Source: Candidatus Enterousia sp. (GTDB lineage: Bacteria; Pseudomonadota; Alphaproteobacteria; Rs-D84). From it: a stretch of 40,594 nucleotides of DNA. A program made the position numbers and the translations under genes. The stretch lies in NCBI GenBank assembly GCA_045613785.1, contig JAZLBQ010000021.1, positions 1 through 40,594 of the forward strand, written 5' to 3'. Below are positions 22,647 through 40,594 of this stretch, one piece after another. Under the pieces are notes generated by a model, which was not told where the DNA came from, searched no databases, and worked only from the letters and a program-made list of their open reading frames with translations. The first letter of the stretch is position 1. Each line of letters begins with the position of its first letter.

Positions 22647-22678
22647 GCAAACATAGAAACAAAACAAGGAGCAAAAAA

Positions 22679-23463: not shown

Positions 23464-23529
23464 TATAAACGAACAACCGGGACGACTTGACAAAAAACCG
23501 CCCCACAGAAAAAACAAGGAGCAAAAAAA

Positions 23530-23949: not shown

Positions 23950-23963
23950 ACAAGGGGGGGCTT

Positions 23964-24230: not shown

Positions 24231-24251
24231 CAGAATAAAAAGGGGGAGAAA

Positions 24252-24455: not shown

Positions 24456-24474
24456 AAACAAGGAGCAAAAAAAA

Positions 24475-24944: not shown

Positions 24945-24975
24945 GACGGCAGGCAACAACAAAAAAGGCGAAAAA

Positions 24976-25515
24976 ATGGAAAAACTAGCAAAAATTCAAA
25001 AAGAACTGAAAGCCCCAAAGGGACAAATGAACAAATTCGGCGGGTATAGATACCGCAGTTGCGAAGATATTCTTGAAGCGGTTAAACCACTGCTTGACGG
25101 CGCAATTCTGACCCTGCAAGACGAAATCGTTTATATTGGCGACCGCTTTTATGTCAAGGCGACCGCAAAATTCACTGACGGCGACTATACACAAACGACA
25201 ACGGCATACGCCCGTGAACCGCTAGACAAGAAAGGCGCAGATGCGTCGCAGATTACTGGAATGGCGTCCAGTTATGCGAGGAAATACGCCCTTAACGGCT
25301 TGTTCTGTATCGACGACACGAAAGACGCCGACACAATGGACAACACGACCGCCCAGGCTGACGAACAAATTGCCGAAATGAAACGGCGAATCAAGGCGAT
25401 GTTGGAAGTCCTAGACCCTGCGATTGACACCGCTGAATTTAACGGCTGGGAAACCTGCAACGACAAGGCGAAGTTGTTAGAAATTGGCAAGGCGTTGAAA
25501 AAATTGGCGGGGTAG
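24976..25515 (+). CDS. erf: ERF-family ssDNA annealing protein
   Basis: IQKELKAPKGQMNKFGGYRYRSCEDILEAVKP and ASQITGMASSYARKYALNGLF..DDTKDAD signature. Confidence 0.93.
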   Translation: MEKLAKIQKELKAPKGQMNKFGGYRYRSCEDILEAVKPLLDGAILTLQDEIVYIGDRFYVKATAKFTDGDYTQTTTAYAREPLDKKGADASQITGMASSYARKYALNGLFCIDDTKDADTMDNTTAQADEQIAEMKRRIKAMLEVLDPAIDTAEFNGWETCNDKAKLLEIGKALKKLAG

Positions 25516-25519
25516 TGCG

Positions 25520-26170
25520 ATGAAAATATACAACATACCGCAACACCTAGACGATGGGCAGGCGAACCCTGATTGGCTTGCCCTGCGTGCTGGGAAATTT
25601 AGTGGCTCAGATTTCCACCAGTATTTGGGCATTATAGGCAAGGGATTATCGGCGACCGCTGAAACCGCTTTACATAAAAAAGTATTGGAATCCCTGGGCG
25701 AAACCTTTACAGGCGTGCAGACGGACGCAATGGCTTGTGGTAATGAATTGGAGCCACTTGCCCGTGAAGCGTATATGTGCCAGACCTTTGCAGATGTTCA
25801 GGAAGTCGGCTTTGTTGATTGGGAACGCTTGCGTGCAGGCGTTAGCCCTGATGGCGTGATATTTGGCGACAATGGCGAGATTGAGAAGATTATTGAATGC
25901 AAATGCCCAGAGTTGCCGGCATTTATCCGATACGCAACCGACAAGTCGAACATACCGCCGAAATATATAGTGCAAATGCAAATGCAAATGCTGATAACAG
26001 GGGCGAAGTTGTGCGATTTTGTGGCATACTATCCAGGGATGCGTCTGGTTGTGCATACAATAGACGCAGACAGCGAATATCAGGCGAAGATAGTCGCAGC
26101 ACTGGAAAAACTAAACGAACGCTATGATGAGATTCTGGCGACAATAAACAAGTTGAAAGTAGGGGAATAA
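25520..26170 (+). CDS. YqaJ / lambda-exonuclease-family nuclease
   Basis: WLALRAGKFSGS, GNELEPLAR, GVSPDG, IECKCP and QMQMQM..CDFV motifs. Confidence 0.93.
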   Translation: MKIYNIPQHLDDGQANPDWLALRAGKFSGSDFHQYLGIIGKGLSATAETALHKKVLESLGETFTGVQTDAMACGNELEPLAREAYMCQTFADVQEVGFVDWERLRAGVSPDGVIFGDNGEIEKIIECKCPELPAFIRYATDKSNIPPKYIVQMQMQMLITGAKLCDFVAYYPGMRLVVHTIDADSEYQAKIVAALEKLNERYDEILATINKLKVGE

Positions 26171-26171
26171 A

Positions 26172-26339
26172 ATGGAAGTAGAAAACGCATTTATGAAAAT
26201 TTTATGCTTTTTTGCCGTTGCTGGCGTGACTTTATATTTTGCGGCTGTGATACACGACACACCGTCAAGGTGTTGGTTGTCTTATGCACCCTTTACTTGT
26301 GCAAAGGCAATCCAATTAGAACAAACAATAGGAGAATAA
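26172..26339 (+). CDS. Small membrane protein (55 aa)
   Basis: AGGGGA RBS; ILCFFAVAGVTLYFAAVI TM segment. Confidence 0.6.
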   Translation: MEVENAFMKILCFFAVAGVTLYFAAVIHDTPSRCWLSYAPFTCAKAIQLEQTIGE

Positions 26340-26340
26340 A

Positions 26341-26394
26341 ATGGGCGTATTGGGCGTTATAATCTGCTTGGCATTGCTGGGCGTTGTTAGATAA
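26341..26394 (+). CDS. 17-aa hydrophobic peptide
   Basis: AGGAG RBS; MGVLGVIICLALLGVVR. Confidence 0.4.
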   Translation: MGVLGVIICLALLGVVR

Positions 26395-26399
26395 ACATA

Positions 26400-26427
26400 G
26401 CCCGACAGAAGAAAGGGGATGTCGGGC
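26400..26427. terminator. Stem-loop upstream of the helicase gene
   Basis: GCCCGACA/TGTCGGGC stem with a purine-rich loop (GAAGAAAGGGGA). Confidence 0.45.
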
Positions 26428-26493
26428 GTAAAATTTTGTTGCAATTCGCAATAGTTATGATACTTTTATTTTCAAGCATAAAGGAAGGGTGCT

Positions 26494-28242
26494 ATGAAAG
26501 AAATTCTTATCTCTGATAATCCAGTCGCAAACCAACACGCACAGGATTTTTACCCGTGCAAAATAATCAGCCGTGCCGAACTGGCAGGCATTGACCCGTT
26601 GGCAGTCAAGAAAGCGACACTTGACGGCAACGACACTGAAATCCTAGAACAGTTTATGAATGCCAAGCGGTATTTTATAGCCGAAAGTATTGACTTTTCT
26701 GCGGATTTTGATACACTAGGAATGGCGTATCGTAATGCCACGCCTTACACACCTGTTGACGACACTATGGGGGTTTCCCTTCCTTCTAACGAAGCCCCCA
26801 CTCTTGATGTTTTTGTTGAAGAAGCGACCTATGAAATCCCAATGCAGGAACAAATCGCCATACTTGACCCATTGTTGGCGAACAGACGAATTGGGGCTGG
26901 CACTATTGCCGAACTAACGGCACAGTTGGTGGACATCTGCCGTTCACACGACCTGTTCTCTCGTGATATTATTACTGGGCTGTTCCGCAGTCGCTTTACA
27001 CGCAAACCGTTGACAAGCGAAGAACACGCCAAGACGATGTTTTTTACACACTTTATAGACAAGTTGTATATCAAGACCCACGATTACAAAGTTGACAAGG
27101 CAACAGGGCAGACTAAATCCGAAGTGTCTTATAAACGCATATCAAAAGACGAACTGAAATTGCTTTGGCAGAACGTGTCGCTGTATTCAACCTTTAATAG
27201 CCGAAAGGAATTTTACGAAGCAATACCTGAATGGGACGGCGAAGAACGCATTATGACCTTTATGAAGAAATACTTTGAGTGCGACACCAACCCGAACTTT
27301 TTCTTACTGCTGATGACCAGTCTAGTGGCGAAATTTGCGCCAAAGAACGACTACTGCCCCTATTTCTTTGACTTGGTGGCAAATTCTAAGGGCATTGGCA
27401 AATCGTTGCTGTGTCGCCGTTTATTGGGCGGTAAATATTGCAGTTTCCTGACGTTCGCAGTTGGTCGCCGTGATGACTTCTACGTGAACGCATACGACAG
27501 CAATTCGGCGATTGTCGTTGATGATGAATGCACGTGGGTATCGACCAAGGGCAACAAGGGCTTTGGCACGATAAACAATGAAGAGTTTAAGAATATTGTG
27601 ACGAACGCAACGGATATGTTCTCTCGTAAGCATATGAACCCCGAAGAACACGCACGTTCGTTTATCATTATTCGCACATCCAACGATGTCAACCAAGTGT
27701 ATTCTACCAATGAACGCCGACAGATAATCTTCCAATGCAACCTTGCCGAGCAAGAGTGCCGTATCTTGAACTTGCCGGACGAGTTCTTCACGCAGATGTT
27801 AGCGGAAGCAAAAGACTATTATGTAAAGCACGGCGGTCGGTATCAGTTGACAGACGACGACAAGTTGGACATTAAAGAAACCAACCTGAATAATTACAAC
27901 ACTGAAACCAAAGAAAACTTTGCGATTATGGGCTATGTAAAGGCGGCAAGGGCTAACCCAGACCTGTGGTGCGTCAAGTTGACCGCAAAGAAATTCGGGT
28001 CAGAGAAGTGGGGCAACTACCAGAAATATGTTGAGTGGTGCGAAGAAAACAAAAAACCAACCTTGCAACACAGACCGTTCTGGCGTTCCGTTTCCGCACT
28101 GGCAGAATACCCCGAGAACCATATCTGTGTGCTGTCTGACCAGAGATACGACTTGGCAAGCGGCGGCAAGTGTCGTGTGTTCCGCATAGACCCAATGGTC
28201 GCAGACGAAGTGGCGGACGAAGTCCCCGACATTCCATATTAA
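26494..28242 (+). CDS. VirE/VapE-family SF3-type replicative helicase
   Basis: PEWDGEERI, Walker A SKGIGKS, Walker B IVVDDE, SFIIIRTSN..TNERR; acidic DIPY tail. Confidence 0.85.
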   Translation: MKEILISDNPVANQHAQDFYPCKIISRAELAGIDPLAVKKATLDGNDTEILEQFMNAKRYFIAESIDFSADFDTLGMAYRNATPYTPVDDTMGVSLPSNEAPTLDVFVEEATYEIPMQEQIAILDPLLANRRIGAGTIAELTAQLVDICRSHDLFSRDIITGLFRSRFTRKPLTSEEHAKTMFFTHFIDKLYIKTHDYKVDKATGQTKSEVSYKRISKDELKLLWQNVSLYSTFNSRKEFYEAIPEWDGEERIMTFMKKYFECDTNPNFFLLLMTSLVAKFAPKNDYCPYFFDLVANSKGIGKSLLCRRLLGGKYCSFLTFAVGRRDDFYVNAYDSNSAIVVDDECTWVSTKGNKGFGTINNEEFKNIVTNATDMFSRKHMNPEEHARSFIIIRTSNDVNQVYSTNERRQIIFQCNLAEQECRILNLPDEFFTQMLAEAKDYYVKHGGRYQLTDDDKLDIKETNLNNYNTETKENFAIMGYVKAARANPDLWCVKLTAKKFGSEKWGNYQKYVEWCEENKKPTLQHRPFWRSVSALAEYPENHICVLSDQRYDLASGGKCRVFRIDPMVADEVADEVPDIPY

Positions 28243-28260
28243 AAAATATTTTGCTGATTC

Positions 28261-28289
28261 TTTACAGTCTTAATTTTATGTGTTATAAT
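28261..28289 (+). promoter_or_regulatory. Promoter of the mini-ORF array
   Basis: TTTACA-N14-TGT-TATAAT. Confidence 0.75.
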
Positions 28290-28315
28290 GGTTGCGAACA
28301 ACAAAGGAGTTGAAA

Positions 28316-28624
28316 ATGACCATTACGGATATTATTAGAAACGAGATTGCCGTCGCTTTGGGGCATACGCCTTATGATGACGAGCAAGAATATTTTATGA
28401 ACTACATTCACGACGGATTAGCGGATAAAATTAACGCAGATTTGCCAATTATGCTAAAAGACATTTCGACAGCGATATACCTGTGTCGTGAAGAATGTTT
28501 TTGGTGTTGCCAAGAATGTGGCGAGTGGTTTTTGCCAAGCGAAATGAACGATTACGGCGGTCACTATTGCTTGAACTGCAAACCATTTGAAGACCCAGAT
28601 GTATGGAAAGACCAAGGAGAATAA
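28316..28624 (+). CDS. Protein with C-terminal zinc ribbon
   Basis: CQECGEW..YCLNC; AAGGAG RBS. Confidence 0.75.
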   Translation: MTITDIIRNEIAVALGHTPYDDEQEYFMNYIHDGLADKINADLPIMLKDISTAIYLCREECFWCCQECGEWFLPSEMNDYGGHYCLNCKPFEDPDVWKDQGE

Positions 28625-28626
28625 AA

Positions 28627-28854
28627 ATGACGATTCAAGATTTAATGCCAATTTTAAGACCTGGTTGGGTTGCAATGGACGAAAACGGCGAGTGGTGGTG
28701 GTTTGATGCGGAACCACTGCGTATAGACACTGGATGGATTAACCCAGATGGCGTGATAAGTTTTGGTATCCAAACGGCACTTTCCGTCAATTTCAAGGAC
28801 GACATTACACCGTTCGACGGCGGCTGGGAAAACAGTTTAATCAAGGTGGGATAA
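28627..28854 (+). CDS. Hypothetical Trp-rich phage protein
   Basis: WVAMDENGEWWWFDAEP..WENSL; AAGGAG RBS; similar to 31145..31510. Confidence 0.8.
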   Translation: MTIQDLMPILRPGWVAMDENGEWWWFDAEPLRIDTGWINPDGVISFGIQTALSVNFKDDITPFDGGWENSLIKVG

Positions 28855-29004
28855 ATGAAAGCAATAACATTTTTCGGCGAAGTTATATTGTTGATTATCT
28901 GTATGCCGGTGTTGTTGATAAGTATGGTTGTGTATTATTTTTGGGATAAATACGACAATCGCAAGACGGCTAAATTTTTTAAGAAATTAAAGGACAACAA
29001 ATGA
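28855..29004 (+). CDS. Mini membrane protein (49 aa)
   Basis: MKAITFFGEVILLIICMPVLLISMVVYYFW..; ATGA-coupled to the next ORF. Confidence 0.65.
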   Translation: MKAITFFGEVILLIICMPVLLISMVVYYFWDKYDNRKTAKFFKKLKDNK

Positions 29005-29147
29005 TAACTGATGTAATGCCTGGTTGTCTTGCGTATTCAAAATATTTAGATACCGCTTGCACACGATTTGGAATTAGCAGGGATGAAGCCCGCAAAAAAT
29101 ACGGACTTTATACCGAAAAACAGTGGACGGAATTATTAAAGGACTAA
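29001..29147 (+). CDS. Mini protein (48 aa)
   Basis: AAGGACAACAAATG start; MITDVMPGCLAYSKYLD.. Confidence 0.7.
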   Translation: MITDVMPGCLAYSKYLDTACTRFGISRDEARKKYGLYTEKQWTELLKD

Positions 29148-29150
29148 CAA

Positions 29151-29282
29151 ATGACAAACATTGACATTGAAAGCCCGACTATAAAAAGCCTGCGTAAATT
29201 GATACAAGAACACAAAAATCAAGAACAGGCAAAGATAGACCGAGAAATTATGGAGATTGCGTTAAAGAAGAATAACAAATGA
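29151..29282 (+). CDS. Mini protein (43 aa)
   Basis: AAGGACTAACAAATG start; MTNIDIESPTIK.. Confidence 0.65.
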   Translation: MTNIDIESPTIKSLRKLIQEHKNQEQAKIDREIMEIALKKNNK

Positions 29283-29413
29283 TATGGTTTATTTTAATTG
29301 TATTGCTGGTAATTGGTGGCTGGTGTCATATTTCGCTTATGGAAGATTATAAAAAAGAAATCGCAGAAGAAGTCGCAAAAGAATTAAAAAAGCAAAAAAA
29401 AGGCAACAAATGA
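29279..29413 (+). CDS. Mini membrane-anchored protein (44 aa)
   Basis: MIWFILIVLLVIGGW.. followed by a charged helix; ATGA overlaps at both ends. Confidence 0.65.
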   Translation: MIWFILIVLLVIGGWCHISLMEDYKKEIAEEVAKELKKQKKGNK

Positions 29414-29571
29414 TAAAGATTGAACCTTATCGTATTTTCCCAGTCAATAACAAAGATGAACGTTTTGAAGCGTGGATTGTGCTGGACAAAAGAACCAATC
29501 GTGTGTGGAGTGAATTTTATCCATCAGATTCGGCAGCAATTAAAGCAATTAAAAAGGCGACAAGAAAATGA
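29410..29571 (+). CDS. Mini protein (53 aa)
   Basis: MIKIEPYRIFPV..; ATGA overlaps at both ends. Confidence 0.65.
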   Translation: MIKIEPYRIFPVNNKDERFEAWIVLDKRTNRVWSEFYPSDSAAIKAIKKATRK

Positions 29572-29735
29572 AAAAGTGTCCATTTTGCAAAAGCAATGAA
29601 TATCAGGAATTGACAGCGGCAGGTATGCGTTGTTGCAGAAATCCAGAATGTAAATTTGCAGGATATTTCCTGCCGATTGAAATACTTGAAATGATAAAAA
29701 CACCAAATGGATATGATTGGAGAATTAAAAAATGA
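29568..29735 (+). CDS. Zinc-binding mini protein, Lar (restriction alleviation)-like
   Basis: MKKCPFC..RCCRNPEC; an N-terminal CPFC is typical of Lar-family proteins. Confidence 0.5.
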   Translation: MKKCPFCKSNEYQELTAAGMRCCRNPECKFAGYFLPIEILEMIKTPNGYDWRIKK

Positions 29736-29750
29736 TAACAATAGACCAGA
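29732..29750 (+). repeat. 19-bp direct repeat, copy 1 (duplicate of the methyltransferase gene start)
   Basis: ATGATAACAATAGACCAGA, identical to 30477-30495. Confidence 0.9.
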
Positions 29751-29767
29751 GTGATAGGGAGTGAGAG

Positions 29768-30475
29768 ATGGCAAGACGTGCATCAAAAGATGCTTATGAA
29801 TGGCGAACTTGCACCCAGTGCCATCAACCATTTAAGGTTGCAATATGCAAACTTGAAAACGGTCAAAAAGCCGAATGTTGCTCAAAACACTGTGCGATGT
29901 TGTTGCGACACGCCAAAAAACGAGAAAAACAACCGCCAATTTCGCAGAAAGATTTTCTAGAAAAATACCAAAGATATATGGTTGGTGTGCATTATGCAAT
30001 GGGGAAGCAAGACAAAATACTATATAAATATTTCTCTATACAAGAAATAAAAAACTGGTGCCTATCTTGGGTTTATGAGAAGTGGAATGATATTATGTCT
30101 GTTGATGGCGACCGTAACCGTATAAATTATATTATTACCCTATGCGACAGGGAAATAAAAAGATATACAGAATGGAATGCGTTTTCTGGGGTATTATCAC
30201 TGGAACACTTAAAAACAATAGGCGTTCAACCATCGTCCAGAAAAGACCGACCCGACGTCAGGGTATTCGGTATGATTGAATTGCAAGAAGCATACAACAA
30301 AATAAAACAATGTGCTGGCAAAGGCGTTGCGTGGAAATTGTTTTATGATTACATAGACGGTATGAGTTTTGACGAACTTGAAAAGAAATATGGGTTTAAT
30401 GCCCACGATTCAGCAAATAAAGTTGCATATTGTCGGCTTAGATTAAAACAACACGAACAGCAAAAAAGGATTTAA
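29768..30475 (+). CDS. Zinc-finger plus ECF sigma-factor-like protein
   Basis: N-terminal CTQC..CCSKHC, a region-2-like helical middle and a C-terminal LFYDYIDGMSFDELEKKYG..RLRLK region-4-like HTH. Confidence 0.55.
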   Translation: MARRASKDAYEWRTCTQCHQPFKVAICKLENGQKAECCSKHCAMLLRHAKKREKQPPISQKDFLEKYQRYMVGVHYAMGKQDKILYKYFSIQEIKNWCLSWVYEKWNDIMSVDGDRNRINYIITLCDREIKRYTEWNAFSGVLSLEHLKTIGVQPSSRKDRPDVRVFGMIELQEAYNKIKQCAGKGVAWKLFYDYIDGMSFDELEKKYGFNAHDSANKVAYCRLRLKQHEQQKRI

Positions 30476-30476
30476 T

Positions 30477-31148
30477 ATGATAACAATAGACCAGAACTGC
30501 CAGTTGTTTTGTGGCGACTGCTTGGAAGTTATGAAACAGATACCAGATGGGTCTGTTGATTGTATTTTGACGGACAGCCCCTATGGTTTCGGATATCAAA
30601 GCAATATGAAAAAGAACAAAGACTTGCCGATGTTCTACGACAGAAACACGCATTGGCTGAACGAGTTTTTGTTCATTGCAAATAAGAAACTTAAACCAGA
30701 TGGACATCTGTATATGTTCGCCCCAACACAGAAGATAGACGAGTTTAAGCAGAAGATTGAAAACTTTTTTATCATAAAAAATCTGTTAGTGTGGGACAAA
30801 CAAGGTTTTGGTATGGGCGATTTATATGGTCAATATGCCCCGTCGTATGAGTTTATAGTATTCGCAGTAAAAGAACAGGGACGTAAGTTGAACGGCGTTC
30901 GTGAACGTGATATTTTGCGCTTTAATAAAACCAAGTGCGAGTTGCATCCAACCCAGAAACCAGTGGATTTGATGGAACATTTGATAGAAAAAAGCACAAA
31001 CACTGGCGATGTTATCCTTGACCCGTTTATGGGCAGTGGCACAACAGGTGTTGCGTGCAAGAATCTGAACCGTAAGTTTATCGGCATAGAACTAGACGAA
31101 GAATACTTTAAGACAGCAGAAAACAGAATAAAAGGGAGTTTAATATGA
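30477..31148 (+). CDS. DNA methyltransferase (N6-A/N4-C, beta class)
   Basis: GDCLEVMK, catalytic motif TDSPY, HPTQKP and SAM-binding DPFMGSGTT. Confidence 0.93.
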   Translation: MITIDQNCQLFCGDCLEVMKQIPDGSVDCILTDSPYGFGYQSNMKKNKDLPMFYDRNTHWLNEFLFIANKKLKPDGHLYMFAPTQKIDEFKQKIENFFIIKNLLVWDKQGFGMGDLYGQYAPSYEFIVFAVKEQGRKLNGVRERDILRFNKTKCELHPTQKPVDLMEHLIEKSTNTGDVILDPFMGSGTTGVACKNLNRKFIGIELDEEYFKTAENRIKGSLI

Positions 31149-31510
31149 TTACTATTTCACAATTACTAGAATCTGTGGATTTGGATTTTGAACCGCAGTA
31201 TGTCACGAAAGACGAAACTGGCGTTGTTGAATTGTGGGAAAAGAAACCAAATAAAACCAATTATGGGTGTTGGAATTGTTATGGTTGGCAGACACGTCTT
31301 GCGGTGCTTAAACTAGCCGAGTTTGACGGCAAGGACTGGACAGAGTGCATTTATGAAGTGCCACGAAAGACAACAGGCATTGCTAAACTTATACACGAAA
31401 AACTAACGATTGGAAGAACCAAATATGAATACCCAACAAACGAAATGTTGAGATTAAAAATCAACGAACTTGTAGATGCAGTCAATGAATTAAAAAAGGA
31501 TTCAGAATGA
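31145..31510 (+). CDS. Hypothetical phage protein
   Basis: YVTKDETG..WEKKP..DWTECI, similar to 28627..28854; C-terminal KINELVDAVNEL helix. Confidence 0.75.
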   Translation: MITISQLLESVDLDFEPQYVTKDETGVVELWEKKPNKTNYGCWNCYGWQTRLAVLKLAEFDGKDWTECIYEVPRKTTGIAKLIHEKLTIGRTKYEYPTNEMLRLKINELVDAVNELKKDSE

Positions 31511-31875
31511 ACGACAGATTTAAGTTTAGAGTTTGGAACATTAAAGAGAATTTTTACTGCGACCAATGCGGGAACATGGTAATGAGTTCTGACGGACATT
31601 GTTATGATAATGGAGTTCGTGGCGATTTTAGTGCATCTGATGGTCTTGTTGTTGAACAATGCACAGGCTTAAAGGACAAGAACGGCAATCTGATTTATGA
31701 AAACGATGTGTTGTTTGATGGTGAATTTTGCGGACAAGTTATTTGGAAAGATGGCTGTTGGTTGGTTGAAATGACACTTTATGATGGTGATAAATCTTAT
31801 GAGCATTTAGACCAGCACTTTGCAAAATATGGCGAAATCATAGGCAACATACACGAACAAAAGGACGCAGAATGA
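31507..31875 (+). CDS. YopX-family protein
   Basis: FKFRVW, QCTGLKDKNGNLIYENDV and EIIGNIHE. Confidence 0.92.
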   Translation: MNDRFKFRVWNIKENFYCDQCGNMVMSSDGHCYDNGVRGDFSASDGLVVEQCTGLKDKNGNLIYENDVLFDGEFCGQVIWKDGCWLVEMTLYDGDKSYEHLDQHFAKYGEIIGNIHEQKDAE

Positions 31876-32204
31876 GTAATTCAATTTGGAAAACACCATA
31901 CAAGAACCCAAAAAATTACCAGTCAGTAATGTTTATAACAAAGAACAATAGCACTCGGGCTGGGATTTTCAAAGATGGTTTTTATTATGACGATGCTAAT
32001 AATCAGTATGAAGATGATGAGTTAGAGTGCTGGGCAACTATATATGATGTCAAAGCCCAAGCGGACAAGGCGGAACGATTGCAGAAAGAAATAACGCAGG
32101 CGTTAGATTTATATTACAGCCCTTATCAAAACCAACACCAAGAATCAGACCTTGTTTATGCCATTAAAAAGGCAATAAGGTATAAAGATAAATCAAACAA
32201 CTGA
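31872..32204 (+). CDS. Hypothetical protein
   Basis: ATGA overlap; AAGGA RBS. Confidence 0.7.
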   Translation: MSNSIWKTPYKNPKNYQSVMFITKNNSTRAGIFKDGFYYDDANNQYEDDELECWATIYDVKAQADKAERLQKEITQALDLYYSPYQNQHQESDLVYAIKKAIRYKDKSNN

Positions 32205-32217
32205 TAAAGGAATAAAA

Positions 32218-32472
32218 ATGGCAGAAGAAATCTGGAAAGATGTTGTCGGCTACGAAGGGCTTTATCAAGTTTCTACGCTTGGACGTGTAAGGTCACTAGA
32301 TAGAATAATACACAAAAATAATTGGCGTTATCATAACGTCATCAAGAAAGACCCTGAATTGTTGGAACGCCATAGAAAATGGAATCGTGAAGCAGCACGC
32401 CGTCGTCGTGCAGACCCAGAATATCGGGCAAGAGTAAATGAACAACGAAGACGTAAAAGGAAAGGAATATGA
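32218..32472 (+). CDS. NUMOD4-only protein (no HNH domain) with a basic tail
   Basis: EIWKDVVGYEGLYQVSTLGRVRSLDR followed by an Arg-rich helix. Confidence 0.75.
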   Translation: MAEEIWKDVVGYEGLYQVSTLGRVRSLDRIIHKNNWRYHNVIKKDPELLERHRKWNREAARRRRADPEYRARVNEQRRRKRKGI

Positions 32473-33125
32473 AAGTAGTAAAACCATCTATCACACCGCT
32501 AACAAATATCAACGGCGAAGAAGCCTTGATGTTGATTCAGAAAGTCGCCAAGACCTGCTATCAGACAGAAAAGACAACAGATGATATTGAATCAGCAAAA
32601 CGAATTGTCCGCTCTTTAATAGCATCTGGGCATCATAGTATGCTGGAATTTTACAATATCACAATGAGATACGTTTCAAATATTGCTGCATACAAAGATT
32701 TACGCACCCACCGACATAGCACATTTGCCGTCGAATCGACCCGCTGGTGTTCATATAACAAAGGTAAGTTTGATGGGCAGATAAAGTTCCTTGACCCGAT
32801 TGAGATTCCAAAAGACAGCCTGAAATATCAGGTGTGGCTGAACGGTTGCCAACAGGCGGAAAAGAACTATATGGATATGATTTCACTGGGTGCAAAGCCA
32901 GATGAAGCAAGTTTGCTATTGCCACAGTCAACGGCTGCTGAATTTAACGTGACGGCGAACCTGCGTGAATGGCGGCATATACTGAATCTTCGTGCGTGCA
33001 ACGCAACTGGACACGCTAGACCCTGCATTAACGAAATTATGCGGCCCACACTGCGGTTATTTGCAAAAGAAATTCCAGTAGTGTTCGACGACTTATTAGA
33101 AAAAATGAACCAAAGGGGAAGATAA
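32469..33125 (+). CDS. thyX: FAD-dependent thymidylate synthase
   Basis: GHHSMLEF, THRHSTFAVESTRW, LLPQS and NLREWRHILNLR. Confidence 0.9.
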   Translation: MKVVKPSITPLTNINGEEALMLIQKVAKTCYQTEKTTDDIESAKRIVRSLIASGHHSMLEFYNITMRYVSNIAAYKDLRTHRHSTFAVESTRWCSYNKGKFDGQIKFLDPIEIPKDSLKYQVWLNGCQQAEKNYMDMISLGAKPDEASLLLPQSTAAEFNVTANLREWRHILNLRACNATGHARPCINEIMRPTLRLFAKEIPVVFDDLLEKMNQRGR

Positions 33126-33209
33126 TGGATGTTGTAATACCTGCTGGAATGTCGTATGAATTTTATATGGAACTGTTGAAACTAGAAAAAACAGTGATAC
33201 AATAATACT

Positions 33210-33542
33210 ATGCAATTCCATAGACAGACCATCTTGATAGAACTTTACGACATCGAAATCCAATTCGGTGGGGTGGAAGAAATGCGACAAGAAGATTATG
33301 TCCAGTCCAAATTAGACGAAGGCTCAAAGGTCACGGCGATGACTTGGATAGACAACGGCGTGATTAAACTTGCGTATTCCGACAGTTTGAATCTGAAAGT
33401 TCTAGCCCACGAGATTGTTCACATCGTCAACCTGATATTCCGCACCAAGGGGATACAACTTGATTTGAACAATGACGAACCGCAGGCATACCTGACAGGG
33501 TGGCTGACACAGGAACTGCATCAGAGAATTTTTAACTACTAA
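33210..33542 (+). CDS. HExxH metallopeptidase-like protein
   Basis: LAHEIVH..DEPQAYL. Confidence 0.7.
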   Translation: MQFHRQTILIELYDIEIQFGGVEEMRQEDYVQSKLDEGSKVTAMTWIDNGVIKLAYSDSLNLKVLAHEIVHIVNLIFRTKGIQLDLNNDEPQAYLTGWLTQELHQRIFNY

Positions 33543-33562
33543 CACAAACGAAAGGAAGGACT

Positions 33563-33778
33563 ATGTTTATAATCACGGGGCAGAATTGCCAAAATTGCAA
33601 AATGTTAAAACAAATGCTGGGCGAAAACGCTATGCGTGTAGAGTTCAGATTGGCGGAAGAAAATATGTCTGTCTGTCGGGAACTGGGTATCAGAACCATA
33701 CCGGCATTGGTTAAAGACGACAATACGGTCGTGTTTGACTTGGGCGAAATCGTATCAGAAGTGGAGAAAACATTATGA
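33563..33778 (+). CDS. Glutaredoxin/thioredoxin-like protein
   Basis: CQNC active site and GIRTIP cis-Pro motif. Confidence 0.85.
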   Translation: MFIITGQNCQNCKMLKQMLGENAMRVEFRLAEENMSVCRELGIRTIPALVKDDNTVVFDLGEIVSEVEKTL

Positions 33779-34137
33779 GTGAAACTATTAAAAGCATAAT
33801 TGAGTGGCACGAACAGACATTTCCAGATGCAACACTGGAAGGGCAAAGAATAAAATTTTGGGAAGAGATGGAAGAATTTGATTCTGCACCTTACTATACA
33901 GAAAGAGTGACAGAACTTGTTGATATGTTTATTGTCGCCTGTGGCGTTGCAAGATTTAATATGACAGAAGCATTATCAGAGTTTGCTTGTGTCCGTGAAA
34001 GGGGCAATTATAAAAATATAGTATGGGAAGATTTTGAGAAAATTATAGACGTAAAAATGCAAATCAACCGCAACCGCAAATGGTCGATTGGCAAAGGAAA
34101 CTATCAGCATATTAGTGAAGGGGGCGACAATGACTAA
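33775..34137 (+). CDS. dATP/dGTP pyrophosphohydrolase-like protein (DUF550 / MazG-like)
   Basis: EWHEQTFP..EEMEE..ELVD..KMQINRNRKW pattern. Confidence 0.75.
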   Translation: MSETIKSIIEWHEQTFPDATLEGQRIKFWEEMEEFDSAPYYTERVTELVDMFIVACGVARFNMTEALSEFACVRERGNYKNIVWEDFEKIIDVKMQINRNRKWSIGKGNYQHISEGGDND

Positions 34138-34549
34138 CCTAATCAAAAAATACGAAAGTTTCTCGCCAAAGGCATATCGCTGTCCGGCAGGAATCTGGAC
34201 TTATGGCTATGGTTCTACTTATAAAGCAGACGGCACGCCAGTAAAGAAAGGCGACACGATTACAGAACCACAAGCAGACGCCTTGCTGAACGACTACCTG
34301 ATTAAACACGTCCGCCCAAAAATTTCCGACCTGAACCTAACACCGAACCAACAGGACGCACTGGAAAGTTTGCTGTATAACATCGGATGGACTGCGTTCG
34401 CCAAATCCAAGTGCTACAAGGCAATCAAGGCAAAAGATTGGGCTACGGCATTAAAGAACTGGGATTGGTATTCTGGTGGCGGCAAAGTCCTGAACGGGCT
34501 GATAAAACGCCGTGCGGAAGAAATCGGGCTGTTCTTCACAGAAATATAA
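34130..34549 (+). CDS. Endolysin (GH24 lysozyme)
   Basis: E-x8-C-x5-T catalytic pattern (YESFSPKAYRCPAGIWTYGYG), NQQDAL..YNIG and LNGLIKRRAEE. Confidence 0.93.
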   Translation: MTNLIKKYESFSPKAYRCPAGIWTYGYGSTYKADGTPVKKGDTITEPQADALLNDYLIKHVRPKISDLNLTPNQQDALESLLYNIGWTAFAKSKCYKAIKAKDWATALKNWDWYSGGGKVLNGLIKRRAEEIGLFFTEI

Positions 34550-34566
34550 AAAAAATTTCGCATTTC

Positions 34567-34595
34567 TTTACACATTGCGAAAAAAGTGTTATAAT
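34567..34595 (+). promoter_or_regulatory. Promoter of the ssb operon
   Basis: TTTACA-N14-TGT-TATAAT. Confidence 0.75.
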
Positions 34596-34625
34596 AATAA
34601 TGCAAATAACAAAAAGGGACTGAAT

Positions 34626-34904
34626 ATGGCAGAATTTGATAATACAAACACAGGGGTGTTGTTTAAGAACGACAAAGGCGACAATCCAAAACGCCCAGAT
34701 TACACTGGGAAAATCAACATCGCAGGCAAGGAATATCGCTTGGCAAGTTGGATTAAAACAGGGCAGGCGGGCAAGAACTTTTTGTCGTTGACCGTGTCTG
34801 AAATTGAGCAGGCGGAAAAACCAGCAGAACCAGTAGCGGAAACAGTCGCAGAAATTGACGACACTATACCTTTTAATGAAGACCGTCAGTCAAGTCGGTC
34901 GTAA
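34626..34904 (+). CDS. Phage single-stranded DNA-binding protein (small OB fold)
   Basis: FDNTNTGVLFKNDK..PDYTGKI..LASW..FLSL; acidic DDTIPF tip followed by 9 extra residues. Confidence 0.8.
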   Translation: MAEFDNTNTGVLFKNDKGDNPKRPDYTGKINIAGKEYRLASWIKTGQAGKNFLSLTVSEIEQAEKPAEPVAETVAEIDDTIPFNEDRQSSRS

Positions 34905-34917
34905 AATATAACTTGAC
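34881..34917 (+). other. H-type RNA pseudoknot
   Basis: S1 GACCG/CGGTC, S2 GTCAAGT/ACTTGAC, loops of 3, 0 and 10 nt. Confidence 0.65.
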
Positions 34918-34940
34918 CAAAAATAATGGAGTTATAAAAA

Positions 34941-35111
34941 ATGGAAATGATAACAGCAGAAGAAGTATCAAAGATTTTGGGCGTGCCACGCCAGACCTTA
35001 TACGGTTGGTTGAATAAGAAAAACTGTCCATTCGGGTCGTATCGTATCCAAAATATGTGGCGGTTCAATAAAGAAGAAGTTGTTGAATATTTACAAAAGG
35101 CGAAAATCTAA
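34941..35111 (+). CDS. Excisionase-like HTH DNA-binding protein (HTH_17 type, 56 aa)
   Basis: MITAEEVSKILGVPRQTLYGW..RIQNMWRF; GGAG RBS; below the ORF-track cutoff. Confidence 0.85.
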   Translation: MEMITAEEVSKILGVPRQTLYGWLNKKNCPFGSYRIQNMWRFNKEEVVEYLQKAKI

Positions 35112-35377
35112 TGGCAAAGAAGAAAGTAAAAGAAATTTTTGACGCAGAATTGGAAATCAACTTGTTGCGTATATTTGCGGAAAACAGTCGCAAGATTGCT
35201 AGCCGTGCGACCACTTGGCTTGGCGTTGCGGTTGTGTTGCTGGGGATTTCTGTCCTTATGCGTGGGTGTGTAATCAGCGACCTGCAAGACAAGGTCGGCA
35301 TACTGGAATGTCGCCACTGGGGCGAAGACTCTGGTCAGCCGTGGGCTTATTACGATGACGAATGCCATTTAATGTAA
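35111..35377 (+). CDS. Membrane protein
   Basis: WLGVAVVLLGISVLM TM segment; TAATG coupling. Confidence 0.7.
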   Translation: MAKKKVKEIFDAELEINLLRIFAENSRKIASRATTWLGVAVVLLGISVLMRGCVISDLQDKVGILECRHWGEDSGQPWAYYDDECHLM

Positions 35378-35387
35378 GGGGTTGCTT

Positions 35388-35609
35388 ATGAAAACGCAAG
35401 AACAGGTTCAGAACGCACTAGAAATCAAGCAGAAAGAACTGGCGGACTTGAACGCACGACTGGACGACCTGCGTGTATGGCTGGACAGCAGTGCCTTTAT
35501 GGGCAACGAGCAGATGTTTATCTCTTGCGTTAAAGAACGGGAAGAAAAGCAACGGCGAGAACAGGAATTGCGAATCCAGATAACATTTCTAAAATGGGTT
35601 CTGGGCTAA
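35388..35609 (+). CDS. Coiled-coil hypothetical protein
   Basis: AAGGGG RBS; ends in LKWVLG. Confidence 0.75.
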   Translation: MKTQEQVQNALEIKQKELADLNARLDDLRVWLDSSAFMGNEQMFISCVKEREEKQRREQELRIQITFLKWVLG

Positions 35610-35644
35610 AAGGATTGGCACAGGCGATTTATGATATATTTATA

Positions 35645-35760
35645 AATTGCTCCTTGTTGTGTTCAATACGCTGACATACCGTATCGTGCCAATAGTATGT
35701 CAAATTTTGGGGCAGGATATTTCCCTACATTCTCTCTCTACAAACCCCTGCCCCACCAAG
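35645..35760 (+). ncRNA. Candidate structured RNA: anti-SD tract, pseudoknot and CU-loop hairpin
   Basis: TTGCTCCTTGTT; ATACG/CGTAT plus TGACATAC/GTATGTCA pseudoknot; TGGGGCAGG/CCTGCCCCA hairpin; intergenic, after an extended -10-like TGATATATT. Confidence 0.55.
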
Positions 35761-35776
35761 ATTAAAGGAAGGGGAT

Positions 35777-36139
35777 ATGGGTTGGTCATCGCCAGAAGCA
35801 GCACATCGTTGGTATATGAAACACCGAGAACGTGAACTTGAAAGACAACGCCAAAGGAAACAATTACCAGACGCTAAAATAAAACACAGAAACCGTGAAC
35901 GGTTGCGACTAGCCAAGAACCACGGATTTACTTCGTGGGAAGAATATCAGGCGGCGAAACAGAAAACACAAAAAACTCGTGAACAGGCGGAAGCGAAAAA
36001 ACAAGCGGGACAAGACGCCAAACAGAAAAAGAAAGCAGTAATTCAGTTTTACAAAGACAAAGGGCAACGCCCGCCGTGGGTAATAGTAGATTGGACTTAT
36101 GAGCAATATCAACAATGGTTGCAGGGGTTGGGCAAATGA
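35777..36139 (+). CDS. Basic hypothetical protein
   Basis: AAGGAAGGGG RBS; Lys/Arg-rich. Confidence 0.7.
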   Translation: MGWSSPEAAHRWYMKHRERELERQRQRKQLPDAKIKHRNRERLRLAKNHGFTSWEEYQAAKQKTQKTREQAEAKKQAGQDAKQKKKAVIQFYKDKGQRPPWVIVDWTYEQYQQWLQGLGK

Positions 36140-36375
36140 AACGGATTTTAATACACATTATCGCCAGATATTACCTATGGAAGTTTCGCAGGCAAGAAAC
36201 AAATCCACGTGCGAAATACCGTCTTGACTTTCCTAAAACTGGCAGTATTTATATTCAACGTAGGACAAAAAAACACAGATATAAAAACGTGCTTAGAGTA
36301 TCCAACCACGTAGCCACCAACAGCAGGGGCAACCCTGTGACCAAAATGTCAAAAAAATATGGGATTGTAATATGA
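36136..36375 (+). CDS. Hypothetical protein
   Basis: GSIYI..LRVSNH motif; ATGA overlap. Confidence 0.65.
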   Translation: MKRILIHIIARYYLWKFRRQETNPRAKYRLDFPKTGSIYIQRRTKKHRYKNVLRVSNHVATNSRGNPVTKMSKKYGIVI

Positions 36376-36438
36376 ACACAGACATCATCAACCAAACCTA
36401 TGACGAATTGTAAAAACATCAGACTTAAAGGAGTAAAA

Positions 36439-36603
36439 ATGACAAAGGAAGAAGTATCAGTGCGAACAGTTGTTGCATCTAGTGTTATGGCTATAATTTC
36501 CGCTTTGTTAATGAATATAGTCCCTTTACCTATTCTTGCGTTTTTTTCTGGGGCTATTGCAATGTTCTTTGGCTGTAAAGGTTGGGAAAACATCACAGAC
36601 TAA
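36439..36603 (+). CDS. Small two-TM membrane protein
   Basis: AAGGAG RBS; two hydrophobic segments. Confidence 0.65.
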   Translation: MTKEEVSVRTVVASSVMAIISALLMNIVPLPILAFFSGAIAMFFGCKGWENITD

Positions 36604-36619
36604 TAAAGGTCGTAATAAA

Positions 36620-36955
36620 ATGAATTTGAATATCATAAATCTTCCTTGTGACCAGTGGTCTAAAACTGATTGGCAAGACGCATATTCCCAATACTGCCAA
36701 CACAACCAATTCGGGAAAATGACCAAACGCCAGTATTACGATTTTGTCCGCAATAACCACCAACGGCTAAAAGACCGCAACACACCGTTGTCGGCGGAAT
36801 TGGCTAGTAAGTGGTCGGCAGGGCGAAGAAACGCCCGTCTGTGGGCAGAAAAACACGGTTATCGTGCGACGCCAGAACCCGAACCAATATCGGTTGCTGA
36901 ACTGGTGGAACAGGTGCGTGAGTTAGAATGGCGAGTTATGAATAAAAAGGGGTAA
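36620..36955 (+). CDS. Hypothetical protein
   Basis: AAGG RBS; start at MNLNIIN. Confidence 0.65.
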   Translation: MNLNIINLPCDQWSKTDWQDAYSQYCQHNQFGKMTKRQYYDFVRNNHQRLKDRNTPLSAELASKWSAGRRNARLWAEKHGYRATPEPEPISVAELVEQVRELEWRVMNKKG

Positions 36956-36958
36956 AAG

Positions 36959-37435
36959 ATGGCAAAAACTGTTGATTTTTATAAAGATTCTAACCCGAAA
37001 AGCCCTTATTGTGGGCTTTGGAGAAGTTACAAAGATATTATAAAAAGATGTTATAATAAAAAACATAAACAATATAATACTTGGGGCGGTCGTGGCATAC
37101 GAATGTGCGATGAATGGCTTAATGATTACGAGTTGTTTAGAGCGTGGGCGATTAAAAATGGATGGCAAAAAGGTTTAACAATAGACCGCATAGATTGCAA
37201 CGGCGATTATAGTCCTGATAATTGTAGATGGATAGAACGAACTAAGCAATCATTAAACCTAAGGACTACCAACCTTTATGAATGTAATGGCTTTTTATTT
37301 TCGCAAAGAAGGATTATAGAGTTCCTGTGGACGCTAAAAGTAGGAGACGAAGTGTGTATAAAAAAATTGAAATGCAACGAGATAAGAGTGGGGAATCCTT
37401 ATCACAGGAACCACAGAAATCATTTCTCAAAATAA
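36959..37435 (+). CDS. HNH-like homing endonuclease
   Basis: IIKRCYN..WGGRGIRMCDEW..LTIDRIDCNGDYSPDNCRW. Confidence 0.9.
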   Translation: MAKTVDFYKDSNPKSPYCGLWRSYKDIIKRCYNKKHKQYNTWGGRGIRMCDEWLNDYELFRAWAIKNGWQKGLTIDRIDCNGDYSPDNCRWIERTKQSLNLRTTNLYECNGFLFSQRRIIEFLWTLKVGDEVCIKKLKCNEIRVGNPYHRNHRNHFSK

Positions 37436-37881
37436 CAATAGACACAAGGGAAGCCCTGCCCCTTTCCTTTGACGGGTTCCGTGGAGTAGATACTGTTCGC
37501 TCTGGGTTGCGGACAGGCGATTATAGCATTCAGGGTTATGAAGACCAGATTACTTTTGAACGCAAGTCGGTGCAGGACTTGGTTGGAACCTTGACATCAG
37601 GGCATACCCGTTTCCTGCGTGAAATGGAACGGATGCGGTCTTTCAAAGCGAAATATATTCTTATTGAACACACGCCAGATATTCTGTATAATTACTGTGC
37701 AAAGCACGGTTGGCAACGCAAGTTCAACACGATAATCCAGTCGCTATTGGCTTATGCCTGCCACTACCAATGCCGTGTGCGGTTTTGCAAAGACCGTGAA
37801 GATATGGCGGGATACATCGTCAAAAAAGCAAGGGAGTTTTTGAGAGAACAGGGGGAACAAAAAAATGAGAGTGAAAATTAA
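37354..37881 (+). CDS. ERCC4/XPF-domain nuclease (probable branch/junction resolvase)
   Basis: IDTRE, LRTGDYS and FERKSVQDL; start chosen at the GTG downstream of AGGAG. Confidence 0.88.
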   Translation: MYKKIEMQRDKSGESLSQEPQKSFLKITIDTREALPLSFDGFRGVDTVRSGLRTGDYSIQGYEDQITFERKSVQDLVGTLTSGHTRFLREMERMRSFKAKYILIEHTPDILYNYCAKHGWQRKFNTIIQSLLAYACHYQCRVRFCKDREDMAGYIVKKAREFLREQGEQKNESEN

Positions 37882-38143
37882 AAATGTCTATTACTGCAAA
37901 CACCCAGATTTTATTCAGGACGATAGATGCCCAAATGGCTATATAGTCCTAGACACAGCCAAATGGGTTGTAGAATGGGACACCGTGCCGTTTTATTCAA
38001 CCCCTGCGAATTTTTTCTTAAAAGAACATTACCGTGCCAGTTTCCCGACAGAAGAACAAGCACGGTCTTTTTATAACAAGATTATGAAACACACGAACCC
38101 TGCCGAAGTTGTGTTGTCGGACGAAATTAAAGCGATGGTTTAG
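37865..38143 (+). CDS. Hypothetical protein
   Basis: GGGGGA RBS; last gene of the plus-strand arm. Confidence 0.7.
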   Translation: MRVKIKNVYYCKHPDFIQDDRCPNGYIVLDTAKWVVEWDTVPFYSTPANFFLKEHYRASFPTEEQARSFYNKIMKHTNPAEVVLSDEIKAMV

Positions 38144-40261: not shown

Positions 40262-40594
40262 TTAGTAGCCGAAGCCACAACCGCCACATCCGTAAGCACC
40301 GTTGTTGCCACGAGCAGATTCATAAGGACTGCAAGTGATATATGATGGTGTTGGGAATGGGCGCAGAGTGTTAATCAACGTTGCGTTCTGTGCCTGTTGC
40401 GACAACTGGAAGTTTGCTGTCTGCAAATCACGGTCACGTTCTGCCAACTTGTCACGCAGATTCTGCATTGTGTTGGAGTTGATTAAAGCACGAGTTGCTT
40501 CGCCTTCTTCGTGAATTGCCGTCTTCAAATCGCAGCAACACTGTTGAACGCCTACACGAACGCTGTCAATGTTGCGGTTGGTTTCGCAGCAACA
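40262..40594 (-). CDS. Gly-rich, CCC-motif protein, 3' part
   Basis: Continues from the ATG at 501; coiled coil followed by PFPTPSYITCSPY..YGCGGCGFGY. Confidence 0.9.
   Translation of the reverse strand, partial: CCCETNRNIDSVRVGVQQCCCDLKTAIHEEGEATRALINSNTMQNLRDKLAERDRDLQTANFQLSQQAQNATLINTLRPFPTPSYITCSPYESARGNNGAYGCGGCGFGY
40454..40594. repeat. Terminal direct repeat, right copy
   Basis: Identical to 1-141. Confidence 0.97.

Follow-up and report, generated by a model that had tools for sequence, protein, structure and literature searches.

A conserved structured RNA at a gene-cassette boundary in a phage contig of Candidatus Enterousia, and its possible function in cis

The element, its fold and its setting

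The stretch of DNA analysed here (the window) is an entire 40,594-bp contig, C21, of a 1.04-Mb, 26-contig genome of Candidatus Enterousia sp., and the element that concerns us lies on its + strand, in a 167-nt gap between two + strand genes without a known family. Positions 35614-35701 of the window are a conserved structured RNA that is shared by a few phages of this small-genome gut bacterium and represents a new RNA motif outside all Rfam families. The fold consists of a closing helix (P1), two hairpins enclosed by it (P2 and P3) and joined by a linker (J2/3), a pseudoknot between the P3 loop and a tail just 3' of P1, and a further hairpin (P4) downstream. The parts and their immediate neighbours are as follows (RBS, ribosome-binding site):

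35568..35595, + strand: sigma-70-like motif TTGCGA-16-TAAAAT, within the last part of the upstream gene (9/12, a chance frequency)
35607..35609, + strand: stop codon ending the upstream gene 35388-35609 (73 aa); the element starts 4 nt later
35614..35621, + strand: P1 5' arm ATTGGCAC (inverted repeat; three of the eight P1 pairs compensatory across seven sequences)
35623..35651, + strand: P2 hairpin, 12 bp with a 5-nt loop and three G-U pairs (fold energy and a natural variant)
35647..35658, + strand: TTGCTCCTTGTT, reverse complement of the early-gene RBS motif, covering the end of the P2 3' arm and the start of the P2-P3 linker
35652..35665, + strand: J2/3 linker CCTTGTTGTGTTCA, pyrimidine-rich (CCTT start in four of six lineages)
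35666-35670 and 35680-35684, + strand: P3 stem ATACG/CGTAT, closing the 9-nt loop CTGACATAC at 35671-35679 (four of five pairs compensatory)
35686..35693, + strand: P1 3' arm GTGCCAAT (inverted repeat, fold and covariation)
35695..35701, + strand: S4 tail GTATGTC, pseudoknot partner of loop GACATAC at 35673-35679 (three of seven pairs compensatory, in L059 and L060)
35708..35755, + strand: P4 hairpin TGGGGCAGG/CCTGCCCCA with a 30-nt CU-rich loop (inverted repeat; no covariation seen)
35756..35776, + strand: conserved 3' flank CCAAGATTAAAGG, containing the downstream gene's Shine-Dalgarno (flank shared with L040 and L060)
35777..36139, + strand: downstream 120-aa gene of no known family; other genes or tRNAs take its place in relatives

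Three exact inverted repeats outline the fold: ATTGGCAC at 35614 with GTGCCAAT at 35686, TGACATAC at 35672 with GTATGTCA at 35695, and TGGGGCAGG at 35708 with CCTGCCCCA at 35747. A preliminary description of this DNA had read ATACG/CGTAT and TGACATAC/GTATGTCA as the two stems of a pseudoknot, and ATTGGCAC/GTGCCAAT as an alternative pairing. Both sets of helices are real, the former corresponding to P3 and the loop-tail pairing and the latter to P1, and all of them show compensatory changes in relatives; the hairpin with a CU-rich loop that the description placed after the pseudoknot is present as well, as the exact inverted repeat of P4. Its proposal of a structured RNA on the + strand is borne out by these covarying helices and by the folding energy of the 97-nt core, which lies at z = -3.10 relative to shuffles, the - strand of the 181-nt region giving z = +0.19.

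P2 is the variable hairpin of the fold, and its evidence is of a different kind. In the window its energy is -11.5 on the + strand, compared with -4.5 +/- 2.1 for shuffles, and -2.8 on the - strand, so that in the window lineage the hairpin is stable on the + strand only; in five copies P2 falls below composition-preserving shuffles (fraction at or below the observed value 0.004, 0.004, 0.022, 0.000 and 0.004). A natural variant of the window's element, found in contigs of two public sequencing runs, changes the P2 5' arm at 35623, 35625, 35626 and 35627 and the 3' arm at 35647, 35648 and 35649, turning the pairs G-U, C-G, G-U and A-U into A-U, U-A, U-G and U-A with three double compensatory changes. 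The variant P2 has a predicted energy of -9.3 kcal/mol, as against -5.1 and -2.3 for the half-changed versions. G-U pairs that are kept through double changes point to RNA as the folded molecule, and to the + (gene-sense) strand.

For the remaining helices we compared seven sequences from six lineages, namely the window and six homologous copies, of which L040 is nearly identical to the window. L040, L036 (= L045, on G125:C16), L037 and L047 were found by motif scan and used for a covariance model, while L059 (G128:C46) and L060 (G214:C54) were found by that model and not used in building it. All seven share one plan: an invariant G (7/7 copies), the 8-bp P1, 0-1 nt, P2, a linker of 5-14 nt, P3 with a conserved 9-nt loop, 0-2 nt, the P1 3' arm, a single A and a 7-nt complement of the loop. 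About 35 bases are near-invariant; P2 differs in sequence and size from lineage to lineage, and the P3 stem is different in every lineage. Standard pairs fill 138 of 139 pair cells, compared with 20-41% when partners are slid by 1-3 columns, and ten of the 20 pairs have changed on both sides (three in P1, four in P3 and three in the pseudoknot). The covariation score of the alignment was reached by none of 500 shuffles. It is L059 and L060, the copies outside model building, that supply the compensatory changes in P1 and the pseudoknot; in L059, P1 reads ATTTGTCC/GGACAAAT.

Within the window the covariance model finds a single copy of the element. When 299 host-family genomes were searched at the DNA level, this gave short matches to 35662-35701 in two genomes; the pattern drawn from these matches occurs exactly in three of the 299, the window's own included, and matches with 1-2 mismatches were no commoner in the family scan than for a reversed control pattern. 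Scanned with this pattern, metagenomes yielded six stretches, two real and four due to chance, and the genome_contigs set yielded three records, two of them the known family genomes and the third the new L047. The covariance model, run on two samples of 151 genomes each, returned L059 at 57 bits and L060 at 34 bits, both divergent. A near-identity search of the phage GenBank collection gave no match, the helicase-primase of the phage retrieved only distant Firmicute phage proteins, and viral_contigs held no relatives of either flanking protein and 0 motif matches. An IMG/VR relative was reached through the 120-aa protein encoded at 33775-34137, and the element is absent from the 16 kb of it that were covered. 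A full-text literature search for the motif strings gave, among the papers listed, unrelated primer matches only.

Rfam 15 had 0 matches at gathering score on the window and, on the element itself, none at E <= 1 (L034, L036, L037, L040, L047 and L059) or at E <= 0.1 (L060); the Rfam comparison to which the preliminary description had pointed thus assigns the element to no family, C4 RNA, xrRNAs (exoribonuclease-resistant RNAs), self-cleaving ribozymes and riboswitches included. ARAGORN called no tRNA on the element, and the Rfam tRNA model matches neighbouring genes only.

Two sets of apparent homologues were rejected. L041-L044 are chance matches, without ATTGGC and without a GC before the loop, and a 25-bit model match in G291:C17 is false, L058:1501-1575 being the start of a ribosomal protein L28 gene that resembles the P1 3' arm and tail.

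The genes around the element change from one copy to the next, always with the upstream gene on the same strand. The window has the 73-aa protein upstream, and the copies other than L036 and L047 have small open reading frames (ORFs). In the two named copies the upstream genes have recognisable families: that of L036 (1249-1461 of G125:C16) encodes an Acb2/Tad1 hairpin domain of the anti-CBASS/anti-Thoeris sponge family (E 1e-17), and that of L047 is GapR-like (E 3e-26). The gap from stop codon to element is 2-4 nt in the window, L040, L036 and L047, and in L060 the element overlaps the upstream stop codon in the frame as read. Downstream, the 120-aa gene of the window is replaced by another gene in L040, by a 57-aa ORF after a 130-nt leader in L036, by an HD-domain gene and then a capsid gene in L037, by tRNA-Gly and tRNA-Ile in L047, by a tRNA with a CAU anticodon in L059 (43.6 bits by the Rfam model, not called by ARAGORN), and by a Cys-rich ORF in L060. 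G128:C4 is a mosaic relative in which the element stands elsewhere in the gene order.

Between the core and the next gene, the window, L040, L059 and L060 have a U-rich linker followed by P4 with the same GGGG/CCCC base and then the shared flank with its Shine-Dalgarno; an analogous helix is present in L036, and P4 is absent from L037 and L047. P4 encloses 30 nt in the window, ~35 in L040, ~110 in L059 (L059:1380-1500) and ~230 in L060 (L060:1262-1500, - strand). The inserts of L059 and L060 have no Rfam match, those of L059, L060 and L036 lack clear mutual homology, and P4 variation in related contigs is confined to the loop. On the downstream side, the contigs from the public runs part from the window at 35770-35773 and lead into two further genes, and on the upstream side they part from it at 35388, which places mosaic breakpoints at the edges of the module. 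Since the neighbours vary and breakpoints flank the module, the element is a portable unit at cassette boundaries. The sigma-70-like motif at 35568-35595 could, by its sequence, mark a transcript start ~11 nt before P1; promoter-like motifs lie 10-30 nt upstream in three lineages (the window, L047 and L059), not significant alone, and would place the element at a transcript 5' end.

As to the genome as a whole, window positions 1-141 and 40454-40594 form an exact 141-bp direct terminal repeat and, because both ends are identical, the contig most likely represents a whole phage genome of ~40.45 kb, circular or assembled as a circle. Terminase and structural genes lie on the - strand from 22366 down, and the + strand from 22679 to 38143 encodes Erf, an exonuclease, a helicase-primase, a DNA methyltransferase, a thymidylate-synthase-like protein, a lysozyme and SSB, together with a small helix-turn-helix protein, HNH endonucleases and an ERCC4 nuclease. 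Four HNH-type endonuclease genes are present in this 40-kb phage genome (21319-21951, 36959-37435, 38155-38424 and 38448-39023), with one lying between the positions of the small and the large terminase.

Three further observations concern sequences that resemble parts of the element. The pseudoknot at 34881, to which the preliminary description had likened this one, sits in a 39-nt insertion (34866-34904) at the end of the SSB gene that extends the gene by nine codons beyond the usual ...PF end; L040, the closest relative, is without the insertion, and its SSB stops right after ...LPF. The 8-mer ATTGGCAC is found five more times in the window (24088 on the + strand; 20277, 16411, 4285 and 298 on the - strand), always reading in the same sense as the genes around it, which may be chance, with ~2.5 occurrences of ATTGGCRC expected on both strands. 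The P2 5' arm and loop (35626-35637) have an exact 12-nt complement at 36630-36641, within the gene 36536-36955, of which 10 nt are kept in L040; this, too, is probably chance.

Candidate functions of the RNA

The account that we favour, tentatively and with slightly less than even confidence, is that the element works in cis, as a structured leader or as an intercistronic RNA at the boundary of a gene cassette. Positions 35614-35701, with leader parts to 35776, would be read on the + strand within the sense transcript; P1 would close the fold around the variable P2 and the pyrimidine-rich J2/3, the P3 loop would pair with the 7 nt after P1, and in most lineages the long-range P4 would end at the Shine-Dalgarno of the next gene. 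The element would act in cis on its own RNA, as a portable module, and the fate of the downstream mRNA or tRNA would be set by processing, nuclease protection or elongation. Because both mRNAs and tRNAs follow the element, its output would be independent of what comes after it, and the same observation argues for control of processing, protection or elongation rather than for a metabolite switch.

A number of points weigh against this account:

(i) We infer a function in cis (nuclease barrier, processing or antitermination) from the position of the element and from analogy.

(ii) The alignment was fitted to the covariance model and leans towards it, and P2 is not alignable.

(iii) The comparison comprises only seven sequences from six lineages, all from one host family or from unplaced bins.

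(iv) Half of P1 and four of the seven pseudoknot pairs never vary, which hints at sequence-specific recognition or a conserved partner, neither of them explained by pure cis folding.

(v) The 181-nt region as a whole folds on the + strand at z = -1.19, no better than shuffles, and it is the 97-nt core alone that stands out.

(vi) P1 and the pseudoknot may be unable to coexist, given that a single nucleotide separates them; we consider that the two may alternate instead.

In a first alternative the element is a stable noncoding RNA cut from an operon transcript and acting on a protein or RNA partner in the manner of the processed c4 (antisense, phage P1) and CI (immunity, phage P4) RNAs, or else a self-cleaving ribozyme or ligand sensor. 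We think this unlikely, although several features agree with it: a closing helix with two hairpins and a loop whose complement follows a short way downstream in the same transcript; ~35 near-invariant bases suggestive of a conserved partner; tRNAs adjacent to the element in L047 and L059, whose processing by RNase P would free the RNA; and accessory or anti-defence neighbours such as the Acb2/Tad1-like gene of L036. Set against these are the absence of Rfam matches to C4 RNA, ribozymes and riboswitches (E up to 1, or 0.1 for L060), the lack of any further trans target of the loop, or of P1, near a gene start in the window, the continuation of the window's RNA straight into mRNA, and the functionally unrelated downstream genes, which are contrary to a metabolite switch.

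In a second alternative, to which we give a low probability, the junction, the pseudoknot and P4 would make a knot-like, exoribonuclease-resistant RNA that stalls the host RNase J, and downstream tRNAs and mRNAs would outlive the upstream message. The secondary-structure topology agrees with that given for the flaviviral class 1a in the passages of PMC8571300 and PMC8374639 that describe it, and the 7-bp pseudoknot lies within the range of 2-7 bp stated there. The invariant G before P1 is present in all seven copies, and the element always faces downstream genes. The host genome encodes an RNase J ortholog (G000:C12:51645-53258, with Lactamase_B, RNase J beta-CASP, RMMBL and RNase_J_C domains), whose Pfam beta-CASP and C-terminal domains score above their cut-offs; on the strength of this gene the host has a 5'-3' exoribonuclease. 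The likeness extends to topology only, and no Rfam xrRNA model matches; the P2-P3 linker has 5-14 nt in place of a single conserved C, and tRNAs are hardly in need of such protection. We also count it against this alternative that, to our knowledge, no exoribonuclease-resistant RNA of a bacterial virus is known. If the reading were nonetheless true, which we regard as improbable, the element would be the founding member of a new class of phage RNAs that stall RNase J, with downstream tRNAs and late or accessory mRNAs outlasting the early message in a stability-based temporal control. It would then also be, with the same low likelihood, the first xrRNA-like element known in a bacterial virus.

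We consider it very unlikely that the conservation reflects a DNA signal, that is, a sigma-70 promoter CTGACA-16-TAGTAT (35671-35698), maybe with operator half-sites ATTGGC/GCCAAT, following a terminator-like hairpin in a cassette resembling the PeSLs of T4-type phages. Both hexamers consist of conserved bases; a tRNA 5' end (tRNA-Gly) lies 6 nt after TAGTATG in L047 and a Shine-Dalgarno ~12 nt after it in L037; in the window and L036, hairpins begin 3-5 nt beyond the predicted start; and the distances from ATTGGC to GCCAAT (74, 73, 52, 74 and 51) fall some two helical turns apart. The position at a mosaic junction also fits the description of PeSLs given in the relevant part of PMC4122927. 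The match itself, however, is 9/12, at the chance rate of the scan (18 found and 12.2 +/- 3.0 expected), the spacers of the seven copies are 16, 16, 15, 16, 15, 16 and 15 nt (15 nt in L036, L047 and L060), and the phage's strong early promoters score 11/12 with 17-nt spacers. In L059 and L060, where the "-35" loop has changed, the compensating changes lie in the tail, downstream of the "-10", for which a promoter has no need, the stem flanking the "-35" covaries freely (four of five pairs), and the altered P1 of L059, ATTTGTCC/GGACAAAT, is contrary to a fixed protein site. As for the terminator-like hairpin, P2 is not called by the terminator scan; the natural variant gains a T run after the stem, and the P2 hairpins of L036 and L047 are stems of 4-5 bp only, without a U run.

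A structure in single-stranded DNA on the + strand, serving as a replication, priming or recombination site comparable to an integron attC or a single-strand origin, seems highly improbable to us: structure conserved while stem sequences vary, the cassette-boundary position and the phage-encoded Erf, exonuclease, SSB and helicase-primase would suit it, but G-T "pairs" kept through compensatory change are better suited to RNA, the element is always oriented as the genes are, a scan of proteins from a subset of the ORFs gave neither an integron-type integrase nor a HUH nuclease, and the helicase-primase is not common to G128:C4 or G125:C16 (E < 1e-5).

Four narrower candidates were tried and rejected. 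A pair of protein half-sites ATTGGC/GCCAAT joined by DNA looping, at distances of 51-52 and 73-74, was given up because both sides of P1 are altered in L059 and L060. A role of J2/3 as an anti-Shine-Dalgarno acting in cis on the gene that follows is not borne out by its longest complement of 4-5 nt, which does no better than composition-preserving shuffles (fractions of 0.73, 0.78, 0.17 and 0.27 in the four copies tested). The linker overlaps a host rRNA-leader antitermination box by 5-6 nt, by eye only. Group I intron, tRNA-like and hammerhead-like folds are unfit by eye in size, junction lengths and core motifs, and have no Rfam support.

The tract complementary to early-gene leaders

The preliminary description had started from the 12-mer TTGCTCCTTGTT at 35647-35658, which it took for the active part of a discrete middle-phase small RNA (sRNA) that pairs in trans with the ribosome-binding sites of the early genes at 22679, 23530 and 24475 and shuts them off. 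The motif in front of these genes, AACAAGGAGCAA, is found at:

22663..22674, + strand: early-gene RBS motif copy 1, gene 22679-22837, with promoter TTGACA-17-TATGAT at 22618
23513..23524, + strand: early-gene RBS motif copy 2, gene 23530-23796
24457..24468, + strand: early-gene RBS motif copy 3, gene 24475-24735

The complementarity is as had been described: TTGCTCCTTGTT is the exact reverse complement of AACAAGGAGCAA at 22663, 23513 and 24457, and it extends to 16 of 18 nt for gene 22679, as claimed, and to 14 of 18 for 23530 and 24475. Each + strand copy is followed by 7-8 A and then ATG. The observation that no ATG lies behind the tract on the minus strand also holds, in that no ATG, GTG or TTG ORF of at least 30 aa starts there. 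The motif, counted in either form, has four matches in the window with 0.30 expected, and none of 100 shuffles reaches four.

As a 12-nt complementarity, the match is within the background of the window and no energy outlier. The window contains 211 exact 12-mer inverted pairs, compared with 98 +/- 13 in 30 first-order Markov simulations, and an antisense 12-mer scan of the -22..+3 windows of 69 roughly called genes gave at least 12 other isolated 12-nt antisense matches to RBS windows, besides RBSs that resemble one another. We ranked predicted duplex energies over all 30-nt windows, the three target sites themselves being left out. The tract came first for the 22679 leader at -22.3 kcal/mol (the next at -20.7), third for the 23530 leader at -20.5 (with -22.2 and -21.2 better) and second for the 24475 leader at -19.2 (with -23.2 better). 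The sole unusual point is that the target motif is present three times, which is a property of the early genes and not of the tract.

The fold and the relatives give the tract another explanation. The 12-mer is composed of the last 5 nt of the P2 stem and the first 7 nt of the P2-P3 linker; 35647-35651 form the P2 3' arm in every fold, and the unpaired part is only CCTTGTT. The natural variant has AGA in place of the TTG of the 12-mer, with compensating changes in the 5' arm, because the partner of this triplet in the P2 stem has changed. The CTCC(T)TT core is retained in that variant, and CTCCTT is also present in the host 16S 3' end, so that the core has the sense of an anti-Shine-Dalgarno. 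That 35647-35658 matches the ribosome-binding sites of early genes appears to be fortuitous, a side effect of the P2 stem being followed by the pyrimidine-rich linker.

Had the tract served the early genes, it should have co-varied with their RBS motif in relatives, as the preliminary description itself proposed, and it does not. TTGCTCCTTGTT is absent from all five other lineages (L036, L037, L047, L059 and L060); G128:C4 (39.7 kb) and G125:C16 (40 kb examined), the two long relatives, have 0 copies of the early RBS motif, and the matching segment of each is without a complement of 12 nt or longer at any RBS. A motif scan found no terminator-like site on the + strand between 35600 and 38500.

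A trans-acting sRNA that occludes the early ribosome-binding sites is therefore not supported and appears highly improbable to us. What speaks for it is the exact 12-nt complementarity to three sites, 16 of 18 nt at one of them; the first rank of the tract as non-self duplex partner of the 22679 leader (-22.3 kcal/mol); the core kept in the variant and found at the host 16S 3' end; and the promoter-like motif just upstream (35568-35595). Against it stand the burial of five of the 12 nt in P2, with a TTG that changes to AGA in step with the 5' arm, the missing tract in the other lineages and the missing RBS motif or complement in G128:C4 and G125:C16, the lower ranks for the other two targets among at least 12 comparable isolated matches, and the lack of a terminator behind the element. 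We draw a warning from this case, in which a perfect 12-nt antisense match to a repeated RBS is the most eye-catching and the least supported feature of the locus.

Of the presumed targets, gene 22679-22837 (52 aa, AT-rich) lies between TTGACA-17-TATGAT (11/12) and a bidirectional terminator-like hairpin at 22841-22858, and 22618-22858 looks like a self-contained moron-type unit.

Significance and comparison with known systems

Conserved pseudoknotted RNAs that covary in every helix are rare, and those described in the past have usually proved to be ribozymes, riboswitches, or polymerase- or nuclease-binding signals. The present one is notable for belonging to no Rfam family and for occurring in phages of an uncultured, genome-reduced gut alphaproteobacterium (Candidatus Enterousia bins), as well as for travelling with exchangeable cassettes and preceding tRNAs as well as protein-coding genes. 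Together these traits suggest a general step of control at the RNA level in the expression of phage genes, and at ~90 nt the element is small enough for direct in vitro work. Four known systems offer points of comparison.

(i) The c4 antisense RNA of phage P1 and the CI RNA of P4 are co-transcribed with their targets and have a terminal closing helix and loops that pair downstream on the same transcript, so that control at a step for which these phages have no classical repressor is exerted by RNA. The Rfam C4 model, however, has no match to the element. The complementary site of the element lies 1 nt 3' of P1, a spacing better suited to an intramolecular pseudoknot than to pairing of the c4/CI type, and in four of the six lineages that site is not at an RBS.

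(ii) The alphaproteobacterial "cuckoo" RNAs carry a conserved CCUCCUCCC anti-Shine-Dalgarno motif in the hairpin loops of discrete, terminated transcripts. Like them, the element belongs to an alphaproteobacterial system and has a C/U-rich tract able to pair with several Shine-Dalgarnos; unlike theirs, its tract is half buried in a stem, is followed by no terminator and is absent from homologous elements.

(iii) The PeSL cassettes of T4-type phages, composites of terminator and promoter, are, according to the relevant parts of PMC4122927 and PMC2839356, conserved intergenic modules that flank exchangeable genes at recombination breakpoints. In both systems, so far as those parts describe it, a short conserved intergenic module is set among unrelated, exchangeable genes at recombination breakpoints. 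The conservation of the element is explained by its pseudoknotted RNA fold and not by a promoter, and there is one copy per genome, as opposed to the many PeSLs of those accounts, with an internal promoter-like motif whose spacers are 15-16 nt.

(iv) Flaviviral class 1a xrRNAs are described, in the corresponding passages of PMC8571300 and PMC8374639, as a P1-P2-P3 junction with a pseudoknot that involves L3 and an added P4. The element likewise has a P1-P2-P3 three-way junction, a pseudoknot from the P3 loop to the strand 3' of P1, and a P4 that follows, the two RNAs being compared here by secondary-structure topology alone. They differ in sharing no sequence or covariance-model similarity and in the longer, variable linker of the element. 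In xrRNAs a pseudoknot at the 5' end and base triples make up the ring around that end, and what the element shows at this place is the invariant G ahead of P1. The host enzyme would be RNase J rather than Xrn1, and the element lies between the genes of a DNA phage instead of in the 3' untranslated region of an RNA virus.

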